From contig CAZLXD010000002.1 of NCBI GenBank assembly GCA_964563185.1, forward strand, positions 1 to 51,542: a DNA stretch of 51,542 nucleotides, read 5' to 3'. The notes below the pieces were generated by a model, which worked only from the letters and a program-made list of their open reading frames with translations, was not told the DNA's origin and did no database searches. A program made the position numbers and the translations under genes. Positions 30,934-44,739 of the stretch are shown piece by piece (the first letter of the stretch is position 1; the number at the start of each line of letters is the position of its first letter). The DNA is from an uncultured Chitinophaga sp. GTDB lineage: Bacteria; Bacteroidota; Bacteroidia; Chitinophagales; LD1.

Positions 30934-32352
30934 ATGCTTAAAAGAATACTCCTTCCCGTTTTATTGCTGGCTGTTTTAGTTAACTGGTCGGGCTGTAAAA
31001 AAGAATGCAACATACCGCTGCCCAACAACCCCGGTGATACTACTTACGTGCAAACCACCCCCTGGCCCAAGTGGGTTTTTCAGCATTGGGTGTGGGAAGG
31101 CGAAGGCACCACGCAAAGCGCCCGGCAACTGGTTGATGATTACTTAGCCAACGGCATACCGGTAGATGCTATTATTATTGACAGCCCCTGGGAAACCGGC
31201 TACAATACTTTTGAGTGGGACAGCACCCGCTACCCCGATGCACAGGGCATGATTGATTACTTCCACAGCAAAAACATAAAAGTGCTTTGCTGGATAACCG
31301 GAGGCATTGATACCAACATGCACCCCCTGTGGGACTACGCCAAAGACCACAACTATTTTATGAAAGAGAATGCCAACAGCGGCCCCGCTATTGTAAAATG
31401 GTGGAAGCCTACCCGTTGCAGCCTCATAGATTTTTACAACCCCGATGCCGTGGCCTGGTGGAAGGGCCTGATGGATAAAACACTGGCCTATGGTATTGAC
31501 GGCTGGAAGTGCGATGGCTCCGATTTTCTGCTGTACGATGTGCAGAATTTTAAATCGTATTTCTACTCGCCTTACTTACAGGGCAACATACCCAGCCGCA
31601 ACGATTACTCGGAAAAATACTACCGCCTGTTTCACGAATACAGCCGCCAGAAGTTAGGCAACGACCGCGTGGTGATGTGCCGCCCCGTAGATAATTACGG
31701 CTACCCTTTCAGCGGCAGTTTAGTGGAGTTTGGCCCCAAGGATATCAGCTATGCTTACTGGGTGGGCGACCAGGATGGCGACTTTAACGGTATGAAAGCC
31801 GCGCTCAACAACATGTACGAAAGCGATGCTTCGGGCTACTACAGCTTTGGTTCCGATATTGGCGGCTACCGCACCGATGAAACCCTGTACCCCGGCACCG
31901 GCCGTTCGAAAGAAAGCTTTATACGCTGGGCACAGCTGGGCGCTTTTAGCGGCTTAATGGAAAACGGTGGCGGAGGCGAGCACCGCCCCTGGATGTTCGA
32001 CCAGCAAACCAACGAGATATACAAAAAGCTGGTGATTATGCGCAACAAATACTTAGTGGGTTACTTAATGGAAAACATGAGCAAGGTAGTGGCGCAGGGC
32101 AGCTCGCTCATGAACTTTTACAACAAAACCGATTACAGCTATATGCTGGGCGATGATATTTACGTAGCGCCTGTGCTAAGCAGCAGCGGCACCGTAACCG
32201 TTAACCTGCCCGCAGGCGATAACTGGGTTTACTTATACGATAAAACCAAAGTATACGAAGGCGGGCAAAGCATTACCAAAACCTACGCGCTGGAAGAGTT
32301 CCCCGTTTACATAAAGCAAAGCAGTAAGCTGGCCGATGCGGTGGTGATGTAG
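30934..32352 (+). CDS. Glycoside hydrolase family 31-like lipoprotein
   Basis: Lipoprotein signal (NWSGCKK). GH31-like catalytic-region motifs (GIDGWKCDGSDF; WVGDQDGDF; FGSDIGGY). Confidence 0.75.
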   Translation: MLKRILLPVLLLAVLVNWSGCKKECNIPLPNNPGDTTYVQTTPWPKWVFQHWVWEGEGTTQSARQLVDDYLANGIPVDAIIIDSPWETGYNTFEWDSTRYPDAQGMIDYFHSKNIKVLCWITGGIDTNMHPLWDYAKDHNYFMKENANSGPAIVKWWKPTRCSLIDFYNPDAVAWWKGLMDKTLAYGIDGWKCDGSDFLLYDVQNFKSYFYSPYLQGNIPSRNDYSEKYYRLFHEYSRQKLGNDRVVMCRPVDNYGYPFSGSLVEFGPKDISYAYWVGDQDGDFNGMKAALNNMYESDASGYYSFGSDIGGYRTDETLYPGTGRSKESFIRWAQLGAFSGLMENGGGGEHRPWMFDQQTNEIYKKLVIMRNKYLVGYLMENMSKVVAQGSSLMNFYNKTDYSYMLGDDIYVAPVLSSSGTVTVNLPAGDNWVYLYDKTKVYEGGQSITKTYALEEFPVYIKQSSKLADAVVM

Positions 32353-32353
32353 G
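32298..32353 (+). repeat. Direct repeat copy A (3' end of the GH31 gene including its stop)
   Basis: 55/56 nt identical to 33067-33122 by hand alignment. The single mismatch is at 32349 (G versus A). Confidence 0.9.
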
Positions 32354-32467
32354 GAAAGAAGATTTCCGAAGCTTTTGATATTTAAAAGTATTTAGATGGC
32401 GGGGCACCGGCCGATAAGAAATGGTTGCTGTGTTTGTATATCTTTGAGAAAACAAAGTTGTTTCGCC

Positions 32468-32698
32468 ATGAAACCATATCAGGAAATAATTTCGGTGAAT
32501 CCGAATGTGCGCTCGGGTAAACCATGTGTGCGCAATTTGCGAATTACCGTAGCCGATGTGCTTGGTTACCTTGCCGCAGGCATGACCCGGCAGGAAATAA
32601 TTGCTGATTTTCCCACACTTACCAATGAAGATATTACTGCCTGCCTGGCTTATGCGGCAGACAGCGAAAAGCATGTAAAGTTTGCCTCGGTTGACTAA
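32468..32698 (+). CDS. DUF433 domain protein (putative antitoxin)
   Basis: The sequence NPNVRSGKPCVRNLRITVADVLGYLAAGMT.EEI..DFP.LT.EDI.A.L.YA is the typical DUF433 pattern. The internal ATG at 32468 is used. Its stop overlaps the next start (TAATG). Confidence 0.85.
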   Translation: MKPYQEIISVNPNVRSGKPCVRNLRITVADVLGYLAAGMTRQEIIADFPTLTNEDITACLAYAADSEKHVKFASVD

Positions 32699-33030
32699 TG
32701 GTTTTAGTAGATAACAATCTCTCTTATCGGGTAGCTGTTTTTCTTCATAAGGCTTTTCCGGGCAGTGCACATGTGGCAACGTATAACATGGATGAAAACA
32801 CCGAAGATATTGCGATATGGAATTTTGCGAAAGAAAAGGGGTTTACTATTCTTACTAAGGATAATGACTTTGAATCGTTGAGCCGTTTGTTTGGCTGCCC
32901 GCCAAAGGTTATTCAACTTACCTGCGGCAATAAAACAACTTCACAGATAAATTCAATTTTAGAAAAAAGCGTTGCCGTAATAGGCGGTTTTATTGAAGAT
33001 GACGAAAACTGCCTGATGTATTTGCAGTAG
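32698..33030 (+). CDS. DUF5615 family PIN-like nuclease (putative toxin)
   Basis: The N-terminus (LVDNNLSYRVAVFL) and the motif (ILTKDNDF) are typical of the Mut7-C/DUF5615 partners of DUF433. Confidence 0.8.
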   Translation: MVLVDNNLSYRVAVFLHKAFPGSAHVATYNMDENTEDIAIWNFAKEKGFTILTKDNDFESLSRLFGCPPKVIQLTCGNKTTSQINSILEKSVAVIGGFIEDDENCLMYLQ

Positions 33031-33066
33031 ATAATTTACAGAGCTACACATTGCAACAGCAAGCGG

Positions 33067-33122
33067 GTTCCCCGTTTACATAAAGCAAAGCAGTAAGCTG
33101 GCCGATGCGGTGGTGATATAGG
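33067..33122 (+). repeat. Direct repeat copy B (orphan copy of the GH31 3' end)
   Basis: 55/56 nt identical to 32298-32353. It is not attached to any upstream GH31 reading frame. Confidence 0.9.
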
Positions 33123-33363
33123 CCAGAAGTGTTTCACCTACCTATAAAAAGTGCTTTTGGTTGGCAGGGATGCTGGTTAAGCGGGAGAGGACAAGCCACG
33201 CGCCTTAAGCTATCTGTAGAAGTGAGCGACTGCATGTCTACCGCTGGCGGGAGATGCCGCAAAGCGGCAAAGGGTGGTATTAAACAAACCACCACACCGC
33301 TTACTACATTTTATGGTTTGGTTATTGGTTGACCACGTGCAGGGAACCGGTAACTCCCGAAGC

Positions 33364-33396
33364 AGCGATACCATCCCTTAAAGGGATGGTATCGCT
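33364..33396. repeat. Perfect 14-bp-stem hairpin AGCGATACCATCCC-TTAAA-GGGATGGTATCGCT
   Basis: Read directly. The arms are near-identical to those of the hairpin at 38100-38146. It lies 80 nt downstream of the minus-strand T9SS gene. Confidence 0.85.
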
Positions 33397-33475
33397 ATAG
33401 CCATAACCCCTAAAACCGCACAAGAACCCTCCACTGTATCCCACGCTGCATTGCGCGAGTAGGAGGGTATTTTAC

Positions 33476-35548
33476 TCACTCAAACAAAATCTTCTTATAA
33501 ATACTACCCTCGCTTGTGTGGCATTCTATAAAGTACAAACCTTGTTTCGCTACCGGCAAAATAATTTGTTGCGTATGTGTGCCTTCGCCTAACTTGCCCA
33601 AACTATAAGTGGGCGAAATACTTCTACCTTGCAGGTCGGTTACTTGTATGAAAAAGTCATCGGCTTTCTTTACTTCCAATTTCAGGTTGATTTCTTTTTG
33701 AGCCGGGTTAGGAAAAACCTCTAAAGAGGCAACTGATGATACCTCATGAATGCCACCACAAATAAGGTAATAGTTGCAAGTGTCGAGATAATTAAAACAC
33801 CAATTGTTGATGACGTAACCTAAGGCACAGGCATCGTAAAAATCAAGTTGCTTGTGCTCATAGCAAACTAAAACCTGATCGGTACCGGGATATTGATATT
33901 CAGGGCAAGTAAACAGGCCACCACAGCACTGGCTAAAATGATTATACGGATAAATCAGTTCAGCCATATTACCGATACCTTCTACCCATTTTAACTGCAC
34001 TTGATTAACACCTGCCCCTTTTTTTAGATAAAACACTTTACGTGGCGAGGCGGTATGTTGGGCATTAAAAGAACCAATAGAGTCAAGCTTGTAAACGCCT
34101 GTTTGATAATAACTGAAGCTATTTGAAAACCGGAGGGTTACAGTGTCGCCTATCCCCATTCCAAAATCGTACAGCAGTGTTTCGTATGCACTATCTATAT
34201 CCCAAAAGTATATCCTGCGCATAATGGTGTCTTCGCGCAAATAGCCCATTACACATTGTTGCACGGGCCACATGTTAAGTGTTTGGCTCCACAGTATTTT
34301 GTACGTGTAGCTATCAATCATGGTATCATTACCGGTGTATTCTGTAAAGCCGTTTCCGGAGTTGGAAGACCCCGGCCCGCAATTGCTGCTACGGGAGTTG
34401 TTATTACCGGGATTGCCCAAAACAGGCATTAGATTACTTACGTAGTGCCAAACATTAACGGAATCTAACAGCGGCACATAAGTGCCATCGGTAATACTCA
34501 ATTGCAGGCAAGTATCATAAGCGCATTGGCTAGTACTATCGGATATATGCACACATACGCTGTAGTTTCCATTGGCTGTAAAGCGATAAAAAACACTCCC
34601 TGCTACCGAATCCTGAATAATGGTGTCCGAATTAATTGTCCATACAAAATTTTTAAGTTGGATAGTATCTGTACAAAGGGCTGAGAAATTGTAATAACCC
34701 GGCCCCACGTTTGTTGATTTGAAACTAGCGCTGCATTCGGAAACAACTTCCACACTATCCATTTGAATACAACCACCTGCATCGGTTATAGTTACATAGT
34801 ATTTTCCTGCTGCTAAGTTTGTTCGGGCACTATCAGTGTTGCCATCGCTCCATAAAAATGTAAATGGAGCTAAGCCATTTTGTATTTCAATGGCAGCCGA
34901 ACCGGTATTGCCCCAGTTGGCAGGCAAACGGTGTTTTAGGTATTTAAAACAAATGGTATCAACATTGGCATTTGTAAAATAGCATCCCGCAATGGCTGGT
35001 ACGGTATAGCTTATTCCTCTAAAACACAAATACAATTGCAATAGGCTAGTGTATGTAATGCCACTTATTTGCGCAAAAAAAGTATCGGAAATATTGGTGT
35101 TGTTTGTCCAAATAGTATCGTAAAAAACGGGACTACCCGGCTTAATAATGTACTTGTAGTTACCTAAAGGCCGCATTAGGTTACATGTGTTGCCCTCCCA
35201 AAAGGTAATACTTACCGAATCGATGGGAGATATTACGTTTTGCGATTGAATACCGCGGATAGTAAAAGCAGGGGTTGATACAAATTTGAACCAAACATCT
35301 TTACCAGTTTGTTTACCGAAAGAGCTGTTACAGGTGCTATCGGTAGAGTAATACGGGTAAGATACAGTAGCCTGTAGGGTAGAAACATCAATGCAGGTAT
35401 CAAACAGGCTAAAGTCGTACGAAAGAAAATTATACGTGCCGTCCATAACACCAATATCGGTAGCGGTGGCGCAATTATCGTTTGGTACTTGGGCCTGTAA
35501 ATTACAAACGGTAAGTAAGATTAGTAGAAGAGGGAAAAGTTTTTTCAT
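33476..35548 (-). CDS. T9SS type-A sorting-domain secreted protein with an SprB-repeat/PKD-like module
   Basis: Signal peptide. SprB-type repeat (FTFLWSDGNTDSARTNLAAGKYYVTITDAGGC). C-terminal Por-secretion tail (LEVFPNPA...GLYFIE...KILFE). Confidence 0.85.
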   Translation of the reverse strand: MKKLFPLLLILLTVCNLQAQVPNDNCATATDIGVMDGTYNFLSYDFSLFDTCIDVSTLQATVSYPYYSTDSTCNSSFGKQTGKDVWFKFVSTPAFTIRGIQSQNVISPIDSVSITFWEGNTCNLMRPLGNYKYIIKPGSPVFYDTIWTNNTNISDTFFAQISGITYTSLLQLYLCFRGISYTVPAIAGCYFTNANVDTICFKYLKHRLPANWGNTGSAAIEIQNGLAPFTFLWSDGNTDSARTNLAAGKYYVTITDAGGCIQMDSVEVVSECSASFKSTNVGPGYYNFSALCTDTIQLKNFVWTINSDTIIQDSVAGSVFYRFTANGNYSVCVHISDSTSQCAYDTCLQLSITDGTYVPLLDSVNVWHYVSNLMPVLGNPGNNNSRSSNCGPGSSNSGNGFTEYTGNDTMIDSYTYKILWSQTLNMWPVQQCVMGYLREDTIMRRIYFWDIDSAYETLLYDFGMGIGDTVTLRFSNSFSYYQTGVYKLDSIGSFNAQHTASPRKVFYLKKGAGVNQVQLKWVEGIGNMAELIYPYNHFSQCCGGLFTCPEYQYPGTDQVLVCYEHKQLDFYDACALGYVINNWCFNYLDTCNYYLICGGIHEVSSVASLEVFPNPAQKEINLKLEVKKADDFFIQVTDLQGRSISPTYSLGKLGEGTHTQQIILPVAKQGLYFIECHTSEGSIYKKILFE

Positions 35549-35718
35549 AGAGGTGCTTTATGTAAACATACAAAGTATGCTTTCTATTCGATTGCGCTCT
35601 CTTAAAAAATGACATTTCTGTGACAATTCCCCCAATGGCGAGCGTTTCCCCACTGCCCCCGCACCTCGCTCTTGCCAAAGAGGTTAAAGCAACTTCAACA
35701 AATCAACGGAACTTCTCC

Positions 35719-36327
35719 TCACTCCTTCTTCTCCTCATCGCCCTTCTGTTTAAGTTTAGGCTTTCTTTTCTTTTTGTTGCGCTGTCGTATTGTCTCCTTT
35801 GCTCTTTTTATTTCCTCCTCTGAAAGAAACTGGTGAGCAAACACCTCGCGGTAGTATTGCCATTCGCGGACTGTTAAAGGAGTCCAGTTTGCGTATAAAA
35901 CGGTACTGGCTTCTGCCGCGCATTGTTCAAATTCCTGTAATAGTTGTACCGATAGTTGGTTGTGTGCTTTGGCTGAACCGTTTGCCACCGCCCTTCGCCA
36001 TTTCAAATTGTGATGCCCAAAAACAACCTGCAAATACTCTACGTGCGAAAGAAACATGTGCAGCCTCGAACTGGCATCGGTTTGCTCGTAGCAGGCTTTC
36101 CTGTTTTTGGAAAGAAACTGAAGCATACTTAACGGGTAGTGTTGTTCCCCGTTATGGAAAATTAGCCCCCATTCGTTCTGGTAGTAGTCCTCCACTAAAG
36201 GCTTTGGTATTCGACCGGCTATCATTAGCCGGATTGTTTTCCAGGAGAGCCTTGAAAACAATTGCTTCTGTTTTCGATAGCGCAACATAAGCTGTTCTCT
36301 AATCTGTTGTTCAGTTACTGTTACCAT
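35719..36327 (-). CDS. Hypothetical protein (202 aa) with a Lys-rich C-terminal tail ending KGDEEKKE
   Basis: Long ORF with an ATG start, 42 nt downstream of the HTH gene on the same strand. No family recognised. Confidence 0.6.
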   Translation of the reverse strand: MVTVTEQQIREQLMLRYRKQKQLFSRLSWKTIRLMIAGRIPKPLVEDYYQNEWGLIFHNGEQHYPLSMLQFLSKNRKACYEQTDASSRLHMFLSHVEYLQVVFGHHNLKWRRAVANGSAKAHNQLSVQLLQEFEQCAAEASTVLYANWTPLTVREWQYYREVFAHQFLSEEEIKRAKETIRQRNKKKRKPKLKQKGDEEKKE

Positions 36328-36368
36328 ATATAAGGTTGGTAGTTAAGTAAACGGATTATTTCTCCCCC

Positions 36369-36716
36369 TCACTCCTTCTTCTCCTCATTGCCCTTTTCAA
36401 ACAGCTTGCGTATTTCATCGGGGCTAAGGTTTTTAATAGCCTCATCCAGCACAAACGGGGCTTTGGGTTTAAGCTGTTGCAGGGGATGCCGGGGGTCGTC
36501 CTGCATGGTGTCATCGGGCAACCATTCAAACAGGTCGTTGGGGCGGCAATGCAAAAGCAGGCATAGTGTTTCTACATGCTCAATCAATATCCATTTCTTT
36601 TTGCCGCTCATATAGTCGTGGGCAATAGAGTGGCTAATGCCCAGGGCTACCATTTTTTTAAACGGAGCCTTTACTCCTTTTTCTTTCATGAGCGATTTAA
36701 TACGTAGGCGAATCAT
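36369..36716 (-). CDS. XRE/Cro-C1-type helix-turn-helix DNA-binding protein (115 aa), tail KGNEEKKE
   Basis: The N-terminal 65 aa show the HTH_3-like pattern, ending in the typical L...L.C.PNDLFEW. Confidence 0.7.
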   Translation of the reverse strand: MIRLRIKSLMKEKGVKAPFKKMVALGISHSIAHDYMSGKKKWILIEHVETLCLLLHCRPNDLFEWLPDDTMQDDPRHPLQQLKPKAPFVLDEAIKNLSPDEIRKLFEKGNEEKKE

Positions 36717-36854
36717 GGTGTTTATTTTTAAGGTTAAATAATTGCTGAATTATCCCCTCTTCCTATCCCCGCTGCGGGATGCTGCACTTTGCCGACAGCA
36801 CTAATATAAGCATCTGTTTTAATCCTTAAAAATTTTTTTCGGAGGTAAATCAAC

Positions 36855-37022
36855 ATGCCGAAGCGGTAACTGTAAATGCTGAAACGGTAACTAAAAGTTA
36901 GAAACCGGTAACTGAATATTGCGCAGTGGTAACGAAAAATGATGCGGCAGTAACAAAAAATGATGCGGTGGTAACGAAAAGTGCTAAAACGATAACTGAA
37001 AATGCCGCAGCGGTAACTATAC
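36855..37022. repeat. Eight contiguous 21-bp direct repeats (iteron-like), core GGTAAC
   Basis: Units start at 36855, 36876, 36897, 36918, 36939, 36960, 36981 and 37002. A degenerate in-phase unit (GGTAAA core) lies at 36834-36854. Confidence 0.9.
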
Positions 37023-37116
37023 CCCCGTGCAAAACTTGCCTTTTTAAAGCGGCATAAAAGGCCGGTGCCGCTATAGCTTAGCCTTAAAATATTACTAACA
37101 CTAAAAACCAAACACT

Positions 37117-38085
37117 ATGAACAGCGCACAGGAAGACCACTACGGCATGTATTTAAAAGTTGATCTTATGTTGGGCACCAATGCTCCCGATTTAGCCTTT
37201 AACCCGGCTATAGCCACCAACAAAACAATACTGCACTCGCTTATTAACCTTATTGCACAGGCCGACAGTACCGCCACCCGCGACATTACCGGCTTTACAA
37301 CCGCTAAAAACGAACACCGCACGCAGCAAATAGCCCAGTTTAAACTGGTGCGTGCGGCTATGATGGGCTACTACACCACCAACCCCGACATTAAAAGCAA
37401 AACCATTATTGATTTTAATGATTCGGATATTGACAAGTTCCGCGATGCCGAACTGTACATAAAAACCGATCAGTTGCTTGATTTGGCACTGCCCGTAAAA
37501 GCCGTGCTGGATACCTTTGGCGTTACTTCGGGCGAAGTGGATGCCCTGGAGGCACTGAACGAGGCCTGGCAAAGTTTAGAACCCATAGGCCGGCAGGAAG
37601 AAGGAGTAAACAAAGCCGCCCGCGAAGATGTGGGCCGCTATATGGTGCAGACAGACAAATTAGTAAAGAACACCTTAGATAGTTATTTAAAGGTAGTGGA
37701 GTACACAAACCCCAACCTGTACAGCCGTTACTTAACCGCCCGTATGATTGACAACAGCGGGGGCAACAGCGGCACTGAGGGGTACGATGTACAAACGCTG
37801 AACATACCTGCAGGCGGATCGGTGTTGTTTCCTATTGGGGCGGGGTCTATTAACCCACTTCTTCAAATTTACCTGCGCGCTATAAGCGGTAATGTATTTG
37901 TATGCACTACCGATTTACCCGCCAGCCCATGCGTAGCTGCCGGCAGCTATCAATTGCTGCAGGGGGTTACTTTTAAAAAGAGTATAGGCGAGTTGGGAAT
38001 AGACCTGAACAAGAATACCCTGCAACTAACCAACCCCGGCTTAAGCGATGCGGTGATAAGGGCAGGGGTAAAAGAGGAGGAGTAA
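37117..38085 (+). CDS. Hypothetical protein (322 aa): no signal peptide, helical N-terminal half, beta-rich C-terminal half, tail GVKEEE
   Basis: Long ATG-initiated ORF followed 15 nt later by a strong terminator hairpin. No family recognised. Confidence 0.65.
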   Translation: MNSAQEDHYGMYLKVDLMLGTNAPDLAFNPAIATNKTILHSLINLIAQADSTATRDITGFTTAKNEHRTQQIAQFKLVRAAMMGYYTTNPDIKSKTIIDFNDSDIDKFRDAELYIKTDQLLDLALPVKAVLDTFGVTSGEVDALEALNEAWQSLEPIGRQEEGVNKAAREDVGRYMVQTDKLVKNTLDSYLKVVEYTNPNLYSRYLTARMIDNSGGNSGTEGYDVQTLNIPAGGSVLFPIGAGSINPLLQIYLRAISGNVFVCTTDLPASPCVAAGSYQLLQGVTFKKSIGELGIDLNKNTLQLTNPGLSDAVIRAGVKEEE

Positions 38086-38099
38086 GCAGGAAGAAATAC

Positions 38100-38146
38100 A
38101 ATAAACAGCGATGCCATCCCCGGATGGGATGGCATCGCTGTTTATT
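38100..38146 (+). terminator. Perfect 21-bp-stem hairpin (terminator of the 322-aa gene)
   Basis: AATAAACAGCGATGCCATCCC-CGGAT-GGGATGGCATCGCTGTTTATT. The arm core CAGCGATGCCATCCC differs at one position from the 33364 hairpin. Confidence 0.8.
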
Positions 38147-38307
38147 GCCCGGTGCCTTTAGCCAATAGTTTCCCTTTATTTGTTAGCGGTGGGTATCTCA
38201 CCCACCGAAACCGGTAAGAAAACACCTCTGTGGCCCACCTTTGTTTGTATAGTTTCGTGATAGATTCAGGGGGCATTAGGCTGCATTAAGAAAGACAAGC
38301 TGCCGTG

Positions 38308-44155: not shown

Positions 44156-44739
44156 CTAAATTCTTGCTTTTAAACTAAATCGTTTGAAGTTTTTGTTGTG
44201 TTTAATCCGGGCAAAGACAGGCTCTACATCGCAGCATCGCTTTTTCCGGTGCCGGATACTTCTTCGCTTTGTAGTTTTTCGCGGGCTTGTTGCTGATAGT
44301 ATCTTAACCGGTGATTGATTTTAATGGTTCGGTTGCCTTGTATTCCCCTTAACGGACAGTTGACACAGTTTTGCGCCTGATAAACGTGCAGTTCTTTTTC
44401 GCAACCGTTATCGGACTTTGTTTTTCGATGTGTAGTTTTGTTCATGCGTTGCCCCATCGGACAGATGTAAAAATCCTGTTCGTGGTTGTAGTGCAACTGG
44501 TTTTGATGAAAAGGATTTTTGTTGGCGTAATTTTTCTGTTGTTCTTTATCAAAACTGCTGAACTTGACGAATGCTTCTATCATATTTTGCTTTAAAAAAC
44601 GTAGTTTTCTTCGCTTCCATAACCGGCATCCGTAGTAATGTTCCCGGGTGCTTCCTGATACAGGTTGTTGTGCTCTCCTACATGTTCTTTGAGGGTAGTA
44701 GTATCGGTGGGGGAGTTTAAGCAGAATGCCTATAACCAT
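44156..44739 (-). pseudogene. Decayed IS1182/IS5-like DDE transposase (C-terminal part only, at least 2 frameshifts)
   Basis: Three minus-strand frames must be joined to read the following: ...TDAGYGSEENYVF / LKQNMIEAFVKFSSFDKEQ...FYICPMGQ...CVNCP... / VEPVFARIKHNKNFKRF. The N-terminal ~250 aa are absent. One frameshift is at the A6 run near 44594-44599 and another is near 44224-44235. Confidence 0.7.

Follow-up and report, generated by a model that had tools for sequence, protein, structure and literature searches.

Toxin-antitoxin gene pair between two copies of a GH31 gene end in an uncultured Chitinophaga: a probable insertion with long target duplication

One stretch of 51,542 nt from an uncultured Chitinophaga sp. 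(contig CAZLXD010000002.1 of assembly GCA_964563185.1), which we call the window and whose positions serve as coordinates throughout, contains a DUF433/DUF5615 toxin-antitoxin (TA) gene pair between two copies of the 3' end of a GH31 glycoside hydrolase gene. We found that close relatives have neither the cassette nor the second copy of the gene end, and that long, locus-specific duplications recur at other TA cassettes. The locus is a real insertion scar and provides a testable handle on the integration of TA modules. The TA pair, a predicted addiction module with a putative promoter of its own, was probably inserted in the last 52 nt of the GH31 gene without a dedicated recombinase, duplicating 56 bp, that is, by "insertion with long target duplication". 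Scars of this type were known before for restriction-modification (R-M) systems; the new point here is such a scar around a type II TA cargo. The locus is composed of the following features.

30934 to 32352, forward strand: intact GH31 glycoside hydrolase gene, 472 amino acids (Pfam Glyco_hydro_31_2nd, 161 bits, and Glyco_hydro_31_3rd)
32298 to 32353, forward strand: repeat copy 1, the final 52 coding nt of the GH31 gene with its TAG stop and a G; the functional gene end
32354 to 32467, forward strand: leader of the cassette, 114 nt
32468 to 32698, forward strand: antitoxin gene, DUF433 (COG2442), 76 amino acids (Pfam PF04255, 86.4 bits against a cut-off of 23.6)
32698 to 33030, forward strand: toxin gene, DUF5615 (COG4634, Mut7-C-like reduced PIN), 110 amino acids (Pfam PF18480, 89.5 bits against a cut-off of 23.8)
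33031 to 33066, forward strand: tail of the inserted DNA, 36 nt, from the toxin stop to copy 2
33067 to 33122, forward strand: repeat copy 2, a non-coding, orphan duplicate of the GH31 3' end, with ATA in place of the terminal ATG

The two copies of the direct repeat are identical at 55 of 56 positions. The sole mismatch, at repeat position 52 (32349 versus 33118), changes the terminal GH31 codon from ATG to ATA in copy 2 and limits the exact run common to both copies to 51 nt. No further copy was present in the window at up to 3 mismatches, and none of 100 dinucleotide shuffles matched the 56-nt repeat. The GH31 3' end is the duplicated target; orthologues of at least 90% identity share the terminal ...VM and stop. 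The upstream copy keeps the GH31 gene intact and the downstream copy is an orphan gene end that is starting to decay, with no open reading frame (ORF) of at least 40 amino acids covering it. The copies are separated by 713 bp (32354-33066), in which the two TA genes are the only ORFs. The G+C content of the cassette (41.5% versus 44% for the window) gives no clear compositional contrast. In a preliminary description of this DNA, the repeat positions, the 56-nt length, the single ATG to ATA mismatch, the 713-bp interval with the TA pair alone, the TAATG overlap of the two genes and the lack of a recombinase between the repeats had all been reported, and our repeat analysis, the two ORFs and their Pfam matches agree with it in each of these respects.

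Informative relatives were taken from the 90% protein cluster of the GH31 protein, which has ten further members, and their contigs were compared in DNA. Over nadE, an outer-membrane gene and the GH31 gene, four of them (L015-L018) show 92-97% identity to the window; another four (L013, L014, L019 and L020) are 86-90% identical in the GH31 region. The GH31 end is single, and the TA pair and the second copy are absent, in 8 of 8 relative contigs. The TA pair is therefore an insertion specific to the window lineage, which bears out the earlier suggestion that it is foreign. At positions where not even the closest relatives agree with the window, copies 1 and 2 have identical strain-specific bases, so that copy 2 is of recent origin and derives from the genome itself or a strain very close to it. 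Species-level genomes provided 12 GH31 loci of 55-82% identity with no shared synteny, which are too distant to reveal an empty site. Many GH31 relatives at 53-60% identity are about 540-555 amino acids long and have the C-terminal sorting domain of the type IX secretion system (T9SS), and the window protein and its closest relatives have 464-475 amino acids and no T9SS sorting domain.

In all eight relatives homology to the window stops within a few bases of the GH31 stop, and the lineages also diverge from each other there. What follows the stop is listed below.

L015-L018: two small unknown genes followed by an HTH gene
L013 and L014: a DUF1015 gene after 375 bp
L019: a pantothenate kinase gene
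L020: the end of the contig

This site (window 32354-38150 compared with L013-L020) has four gene contents among five relative lineages and is a hot spot of gene-content change.

Duplications were sought at other cassettes by aligning, for each cassette, two 400-nt stretches, one preceding the antitoxin start and the other following the toxin stop. The test set was 13 TA cassettes, and 530 random segments of the same size served as controls. Five of the 13 cassettes scored at least 49 (range 49-126), as follows. Among the controls 5 of 530 scored at least 40, all of them within repeat-domain genes.

Window, DUF433/DUF5615: score 107, duplication of 56 nt, 98%
L028, DUF433/DUF5615: score 126, duplication of about 100 nt, 84%
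L027 (the same locus as L029, from a second sample), DUF433/DUF5615: score 54, duplication of about 93 nt, 74%, including an exact core of 24 nt
L031, DUF433/DUF5615: score 52, duplication of 31 nt, 94%
L023, second TA pair, DUF2281-PIN, an unrelated family: score 49, duplication of about 58 nt, 78%

The duplicated targets differ in sequence and length (31-110 nt), and the flanking repeats of the five loci have no common core; the only motif found in common, ATTTGCG in three of the five targets, is unconvincing. A hairpin is present in the targets of L027, L028 and L031 and in neither of the two coding-end targets. The downstream copy begins 0-36 nt past the toxin stop (36 in the window, 0-9 in the others), and the upstream leader is 31-287 nt long. 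In L023 the target is made up of the final 43 nt of nuoD with the stop codon and a further 15 bases, and the copy follows the cassette. The nuo (NADH dehydrogenase) operon of L023 (1800-8300) is interrupted by a DUF433/DUF5615 pair after nuoC, by the DUF2281-PIN pair after nuoD, and by four small unknown ORFs. The two DUF433/DUF5615 pairs of L037 point in opposite directions, and copies of one gene's 3' end, three in all, lie between and beside them. In this contig (1-1452) one toxin gene is frameshifted, and a 27-nt segment occurs three times and a 37-nt segment twice, both from the 3' end of the flanking gene; the ends of the 1.45-kb contig overlap, and it could be circular or a repeat-bounded piece. 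The same TA cassette with the same flanks, for which the preliminary description had proposed a search, was not found elsewhere. The nearest TA homologue, in L022, is 82% identical in protein and 79% in DNA, the match beginning a single base ahead of the antitoxin start and ending at the toxin stop; its flanks are unrelated to those of the window. L022's own relative L019 is without the cassette, and homology there also ends at the stop of the upstream gene.

A second scar is present inside the window.

36362 to 36395 and 35712 to 35745, reverse strand: 34-nt 3' end of an HTH_26 gene (36716 to 36369, reverse strand) and its copy

These copies match at 31 of 34 positions, stop included, and lie 650 nt apart. 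They bracket an orphan gene of 202 amino acids (36327 to 35719, reverse strand), which reads into the copy and ends in it and for which no homologues were found. The layout, namely a gene end, an insert and a copy of the gene end, is the same as at the GH31/TA locus.

Insertion with long target duplication has been described for R-M gene complexes (Nobusato et al. 2000, Gene 259:99; Furuta, Abe & Kobayashi 2010, PMC2853133), and in the literature searched this mode was described only for R-M systems. The cases of Furuta et al. were defined by addiction genes inside an insert of less than 20 kb, a duplication of more than 30 bp, no mobile-element genes, and alignment of the repeat and both flanks in a genome without the insert (PMC2853133). 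In the window both TA genes lie inside 713 bp without mobility genes, and the 56-bp duplication is present in two copies only; the repeat is single and the left flank aligned in eight relatives, and the right flank is aligned in none, so that the comparison with an insert-free genome, unlike that for the R-M inserts, covers one side only. The two kinds of locus share a small addiction-type unit without a mobility gene and long (>30 bp), variable direct duplications of unique local sequence, which are single in insert-free relatives. The repeat overlaps a gene 3' end in some of the R-M cases, such as the 46-bp repeats of H. influenzae, and examples include a gene fused into the duplicated copy (PMC2853133), as is the 202-amino-acid gene of the window. 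The cargo is different: instead of a restriction enzyme that cuts DNA, the window has a type II TA pair whose toxin is PIN-like (RNase-type). Because the toxin is not a DNA cutter, the explanation given for R-M systems, their own double-strand breaks, is not transferable to the TA cassette, and addiction is more likely the shared cause than DNA cleavage by the cargo.

It is plausible that the joint was formed by illegitimate or microhomology-mediated recombination, for example by fill-in of a staggered break or by template switching. Inserts between direct repeats of 30-100 nt would normally be lost through recombination between the repeats. Loss of the TA cassette, however, would free the stable toxin and kill the cell, so that the insert would persist. 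Since loss of an addiction module would be lethal, such scars may persist mainly around TA and R-M units. This survivorship fits the presence of the same scar at two unrelated TA families, and the identities of the orphan copies, from 98% down to 74%, are as expected for events of different ages. It is parallel to the reported resistance of chromosomal R-M systems to allelic replacement (PMC3874152). Addiction as the cause would mean that the insert is protected against repeat-mediated deletion or allelic replacement. We also considered, with much doubt, a wider proposal, that, in Bacteroidota at least, small type II TA pairs are self-mobile units that enter gene ends or terminators recombinase-free and leave long, variable duplications, with a 3' boundary tight at the toxin stop and a varying 5' boundary. 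Boundaries of this kind would be expected from template switching, from transcript-primed (retroposition-like) insertion, or from an event assisted by the PIN-like nuclease.

According to a 2020 review of type II TA systems, the mechanisms of TA integration "remain unelucidated to this day" (PMC7167474). That review describes the insertion sites as plastic and non-random, gives the integration mechanism as unknown and does not report flanking duplications (PMC7167474). In E. coli, chromosomal TA pairs are found within operons, such as mazEF in relA-mazG, yafNO in dinB-yafP and ccdO157 in folA-apaH (PMC7167474). These pairs lie in short gaps between genes whose order is otherwise conserved, at plastic loci with strain-varying inserts, and L023 is the same inside its nuo operon; the GH31/TA locus differs from them in showing a molecular scar. 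A target duplication of this kind, long, variable and placed at gene ends, may be a readable footprint of TA integration, the same as in R-M systems, and the GH31/TA locus and the related scars are a rare clue to the chromosomal entry of TA cassettes without a recombination enzyme of their own.

Several observations weigh against insertion with long target duplication. Eight contigs align with the left flank, and no relative does so from 33123 onward; the right flank is itself variable, and the clean insertion/deletion test therefore reaches only half way. An exact empty site (the GH31 stop joined directly to 33123), which the preliminary description had suggested looking for, was absent from the contigs of the relatives, and the 23 nt with which the right flank begins had no exact match in JGI metagenomes. 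The 14 nt after copy 1 resemble the flank downstream of the GH31 gene in the relatives (GAAA...AGATTT), and the 14 nt after copy 2 do so less. Eight of the 13 TA cassettes scored 15-22, which is background, and have no flanking duplication; nor was one seen at any of three cyanobacterial plasmid TA cassettes examined. The repeat of L031 is made of short units resembling dispersed repeats. The structure is known from one assembly only, and the survivorship mechanism is something that we infer. The pattern of the flanks after the copies fits a junction of two haplotypes as well as a duplication in situ. In such a junction the TA pair would not be the moved unit; instead, a fragment from a close strain, extending from 56 nt before the GH31 stop into 33123 onward, would have been joined to the right of a resident TA pair by one illegitimate and one homologous crossover, and addiction may have selected the recombinants that retained the pair. 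Every relative lineage has different DNA after the GH31 gene, with the break at the stop codon. The sequence after copy 1 is similar to that in the relatives, and identity between the copies falls from 98% to about 60% just past the stop, a drop also seen when alleles of different strains are compared. The gene for the 690-amino-acid protein next to the locus lies beside a HicAB pair in L021, and the resistance of R-M systems to allelic replacement mentioned above would also be in keeping with such a history. Nevertheless, we consider it unlikely. In five independent cassettes the downstream copy lies 0-36 nt past the toxin stop, which would not be expected of random crossovers and is what a compact TA unit as the insert would give. 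All eight observed GH31 alleles end in ATG, which makes a donor with a terminal ATA improbable, and neither parental arrangement was found among the haplotypes.

Of the two options in the preliminary description, duplication-mediated capture is nearest to the evidence, and site-specific integration with the copies as attL and attR is not supported. Under the latter the copies would bound the cassette or a decayed island, and a tyrosine or serine recombinase would have acted in trans or since been lost. Direct repeats that regenerate a target gene end beside foreign DNA are typical of integrase-mediated islands at gene or tRNA 3' ends, and the region to the right is variable. However, searches of the neighbouring ORFs with Pfam, NCBIfam, PHROGs and PADLOC revealed no integrase or serine recombinase among the window ORFs searched, and the only mobility-related gene seen in the 51.5 kb is a truncated DDE transposase ORF of 171 amino acids (DDE_Tnp_1_6, 44224-44739, reverse strand), 11 kb away. 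The window has no tRNA or transfer-messenger RNA gene, and Rfam gave no match at the gathering score in the window or at E up to 1 in 32250-33520. The homologous cassettes, L022 included, have unrelated flanks and their duplications no common core, 56-bp identity down to strain-specific variants would be unusual for attP, the insert is just 713 bp, and a scan of viral contigs found no relatives of the toxin family. Lack of a recombinase and of an att core common to the family rules against an integrase-mediated island, and we regard site-specific recombination as very unlikely; a recombinase tied to similar 56-bp sites was not found either, in a search limited to the window ORFs. Integron and superintegron cassettes resemble the locus in being small TA units of about 0.7 kb that are set between direct repeats and stabilise variable arrays, but the repeat here is the coding end of a housekeeping-type gene without attC-like symmetry and no intI gene was found, which rules against an integron cassette. 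The DDE transposase fragment would be in favour of a non-autonomous transposon or an element like a miniature inverted-repeat transposable element, mobilised by a transposase in trans. This hardly comes into consideration, since the cassette ends have no terminal inverted repeats and the variable duplications of 31-110 nt are unlike the short, fixed target duplications of transposases (PMC2853133). It is also extremely unlikely that the locus is an assembly chimera in which two co-existing strains were threaded through a shared GH31 end, giving a structure present in no single genome. The source is apparently an uncultured Chitinophagales population whose relatives are all metagenome-derived, strain variation at the GH31 locus is extreme, and no independent assembly with the window TA pair was found. 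Yet the joint between the cassette end and copy 2 must occur in reads for any assembler to output it, and the mismatch distinguishes the copies: because it limits the exact shared run to 51 nt, they are separable with k-mers of about 53 or more, and k-mers of 55 bridge both unambiguously. Equivalent structures are present in independent assemblies, and the L027/L029 locus in two samples.

The right flank, whose variability among strains is in keeping with the idea of an island extending to the right in the preliminary description, begins with the following segment.

33123 to 33475: non-coding segment, 353 nt, 51% G+C, with a perfect 16-bp hairpin at 33364-33396

Its folding is unusually stable (z about -3.8 on both strands), and it has no Rfam match and no homologue in any relative. 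It may be either the ancestral flank or DNA that arrived with copy 2. L021, a 3-kb contig (3006 nt) of a close strain, contains the gene for the 690-amino-acid secreted protein with a T9SS tail, 96% identical to that of the window (33466-35683 compared). In the place of the 343-nt non-coding DNA of the window (33123-33465) it has a HicB/HicA pair, that is, a different TA cassette in the same region. A hairpin resembling that at 33364-33396 is present at 38099-38147.

The TA cassette itself has the antitoxin gene first and the toxin gene second, in the same orientation. Its leader contains TATCTTTG at 32439-32446, as read from the sequence, which we take to be a match to the Bacteroidetes-type -7 promoter box. 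A CTTTG-N6-CAAAG inverted repeat at 32442-32457 may be an operator. Because the putative -7 box and the inverted repeat precede the antitoxin gene, the cassette seems self-sufficient for expression. In L023 and L027 the homologous antitoxin genes are likewise preceded by CTTTGA(G)AAAAC-like motifs.

The antitoxin matches a DUF433 protein in the PDB (2ga1, E=1e-6). In a 21-homologue alignment, residues D5, D32, D37, T53-K54-D55, D57 and E59 of the toxin are invariant, and D5, D32, D37, D55, D57 and E59 are the conserved acidic residues of a PIN-like active site. The AlphaFold model of the toxin (predicted local distance difference test score 95.6) is an alpha/beta fold with four strands, and a fold search of this model against the PDB gave no match with E below 0.3. 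The PIN classification placed COG4634 in the reduced Mut7-C group of likely toxins and reported the Mut7-C group to be without a solved structure (PMC5499597), and the absence of a significant PDB neighbour for our model agrees with that statement. Experiments with VapBC10 of Synechocystis, a PIN-COG2442 pair, demonstrated a functional TA system, whose antitoxin VapB10 binds an inverted repeat in its own promoter (PMC3834315). As in such systems (PMC3834315, PMC5499597), the DUF433 antitoxin of the window precedes a small PIN-like toxin, the genes overlap, the promoter region has an inverted repeat and the acidic residues are conserved; unlike them, the window pair is known from sequence and model alone, and the toxin model has no significant neighbour among solved structures. 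The DUF433/DUF5615 pair is thus predicted to be a VapBC-like type II TA system, toxicity and neutralisation having been demonstrated only for its relative VapBC10. Clustered at 90% identity with about 15 billion proteins, the TA proteins of the window remain singletons, and exact-protein look-ups with the GH31 protein, the toxin and the 690-amino-acid protein of the window gave no matches. Plasmid searches yielded only distant cyanobacterial and Deinococcus homologues of the TA genes.

A tandem array of about eight 21-nt units is located at 36844-37018 of the window, between an HTH gene and a gene for a 322-amino-acid protein of unknown family. Tandem arrays are also present at about 4290-4400 of L016, 3277-3486 of L022 and about 2524-2980 of L031. 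The arrays of L022 and L031 have the same period with different units and adjoin TA cassettes; they may be iterons or operator arrays.

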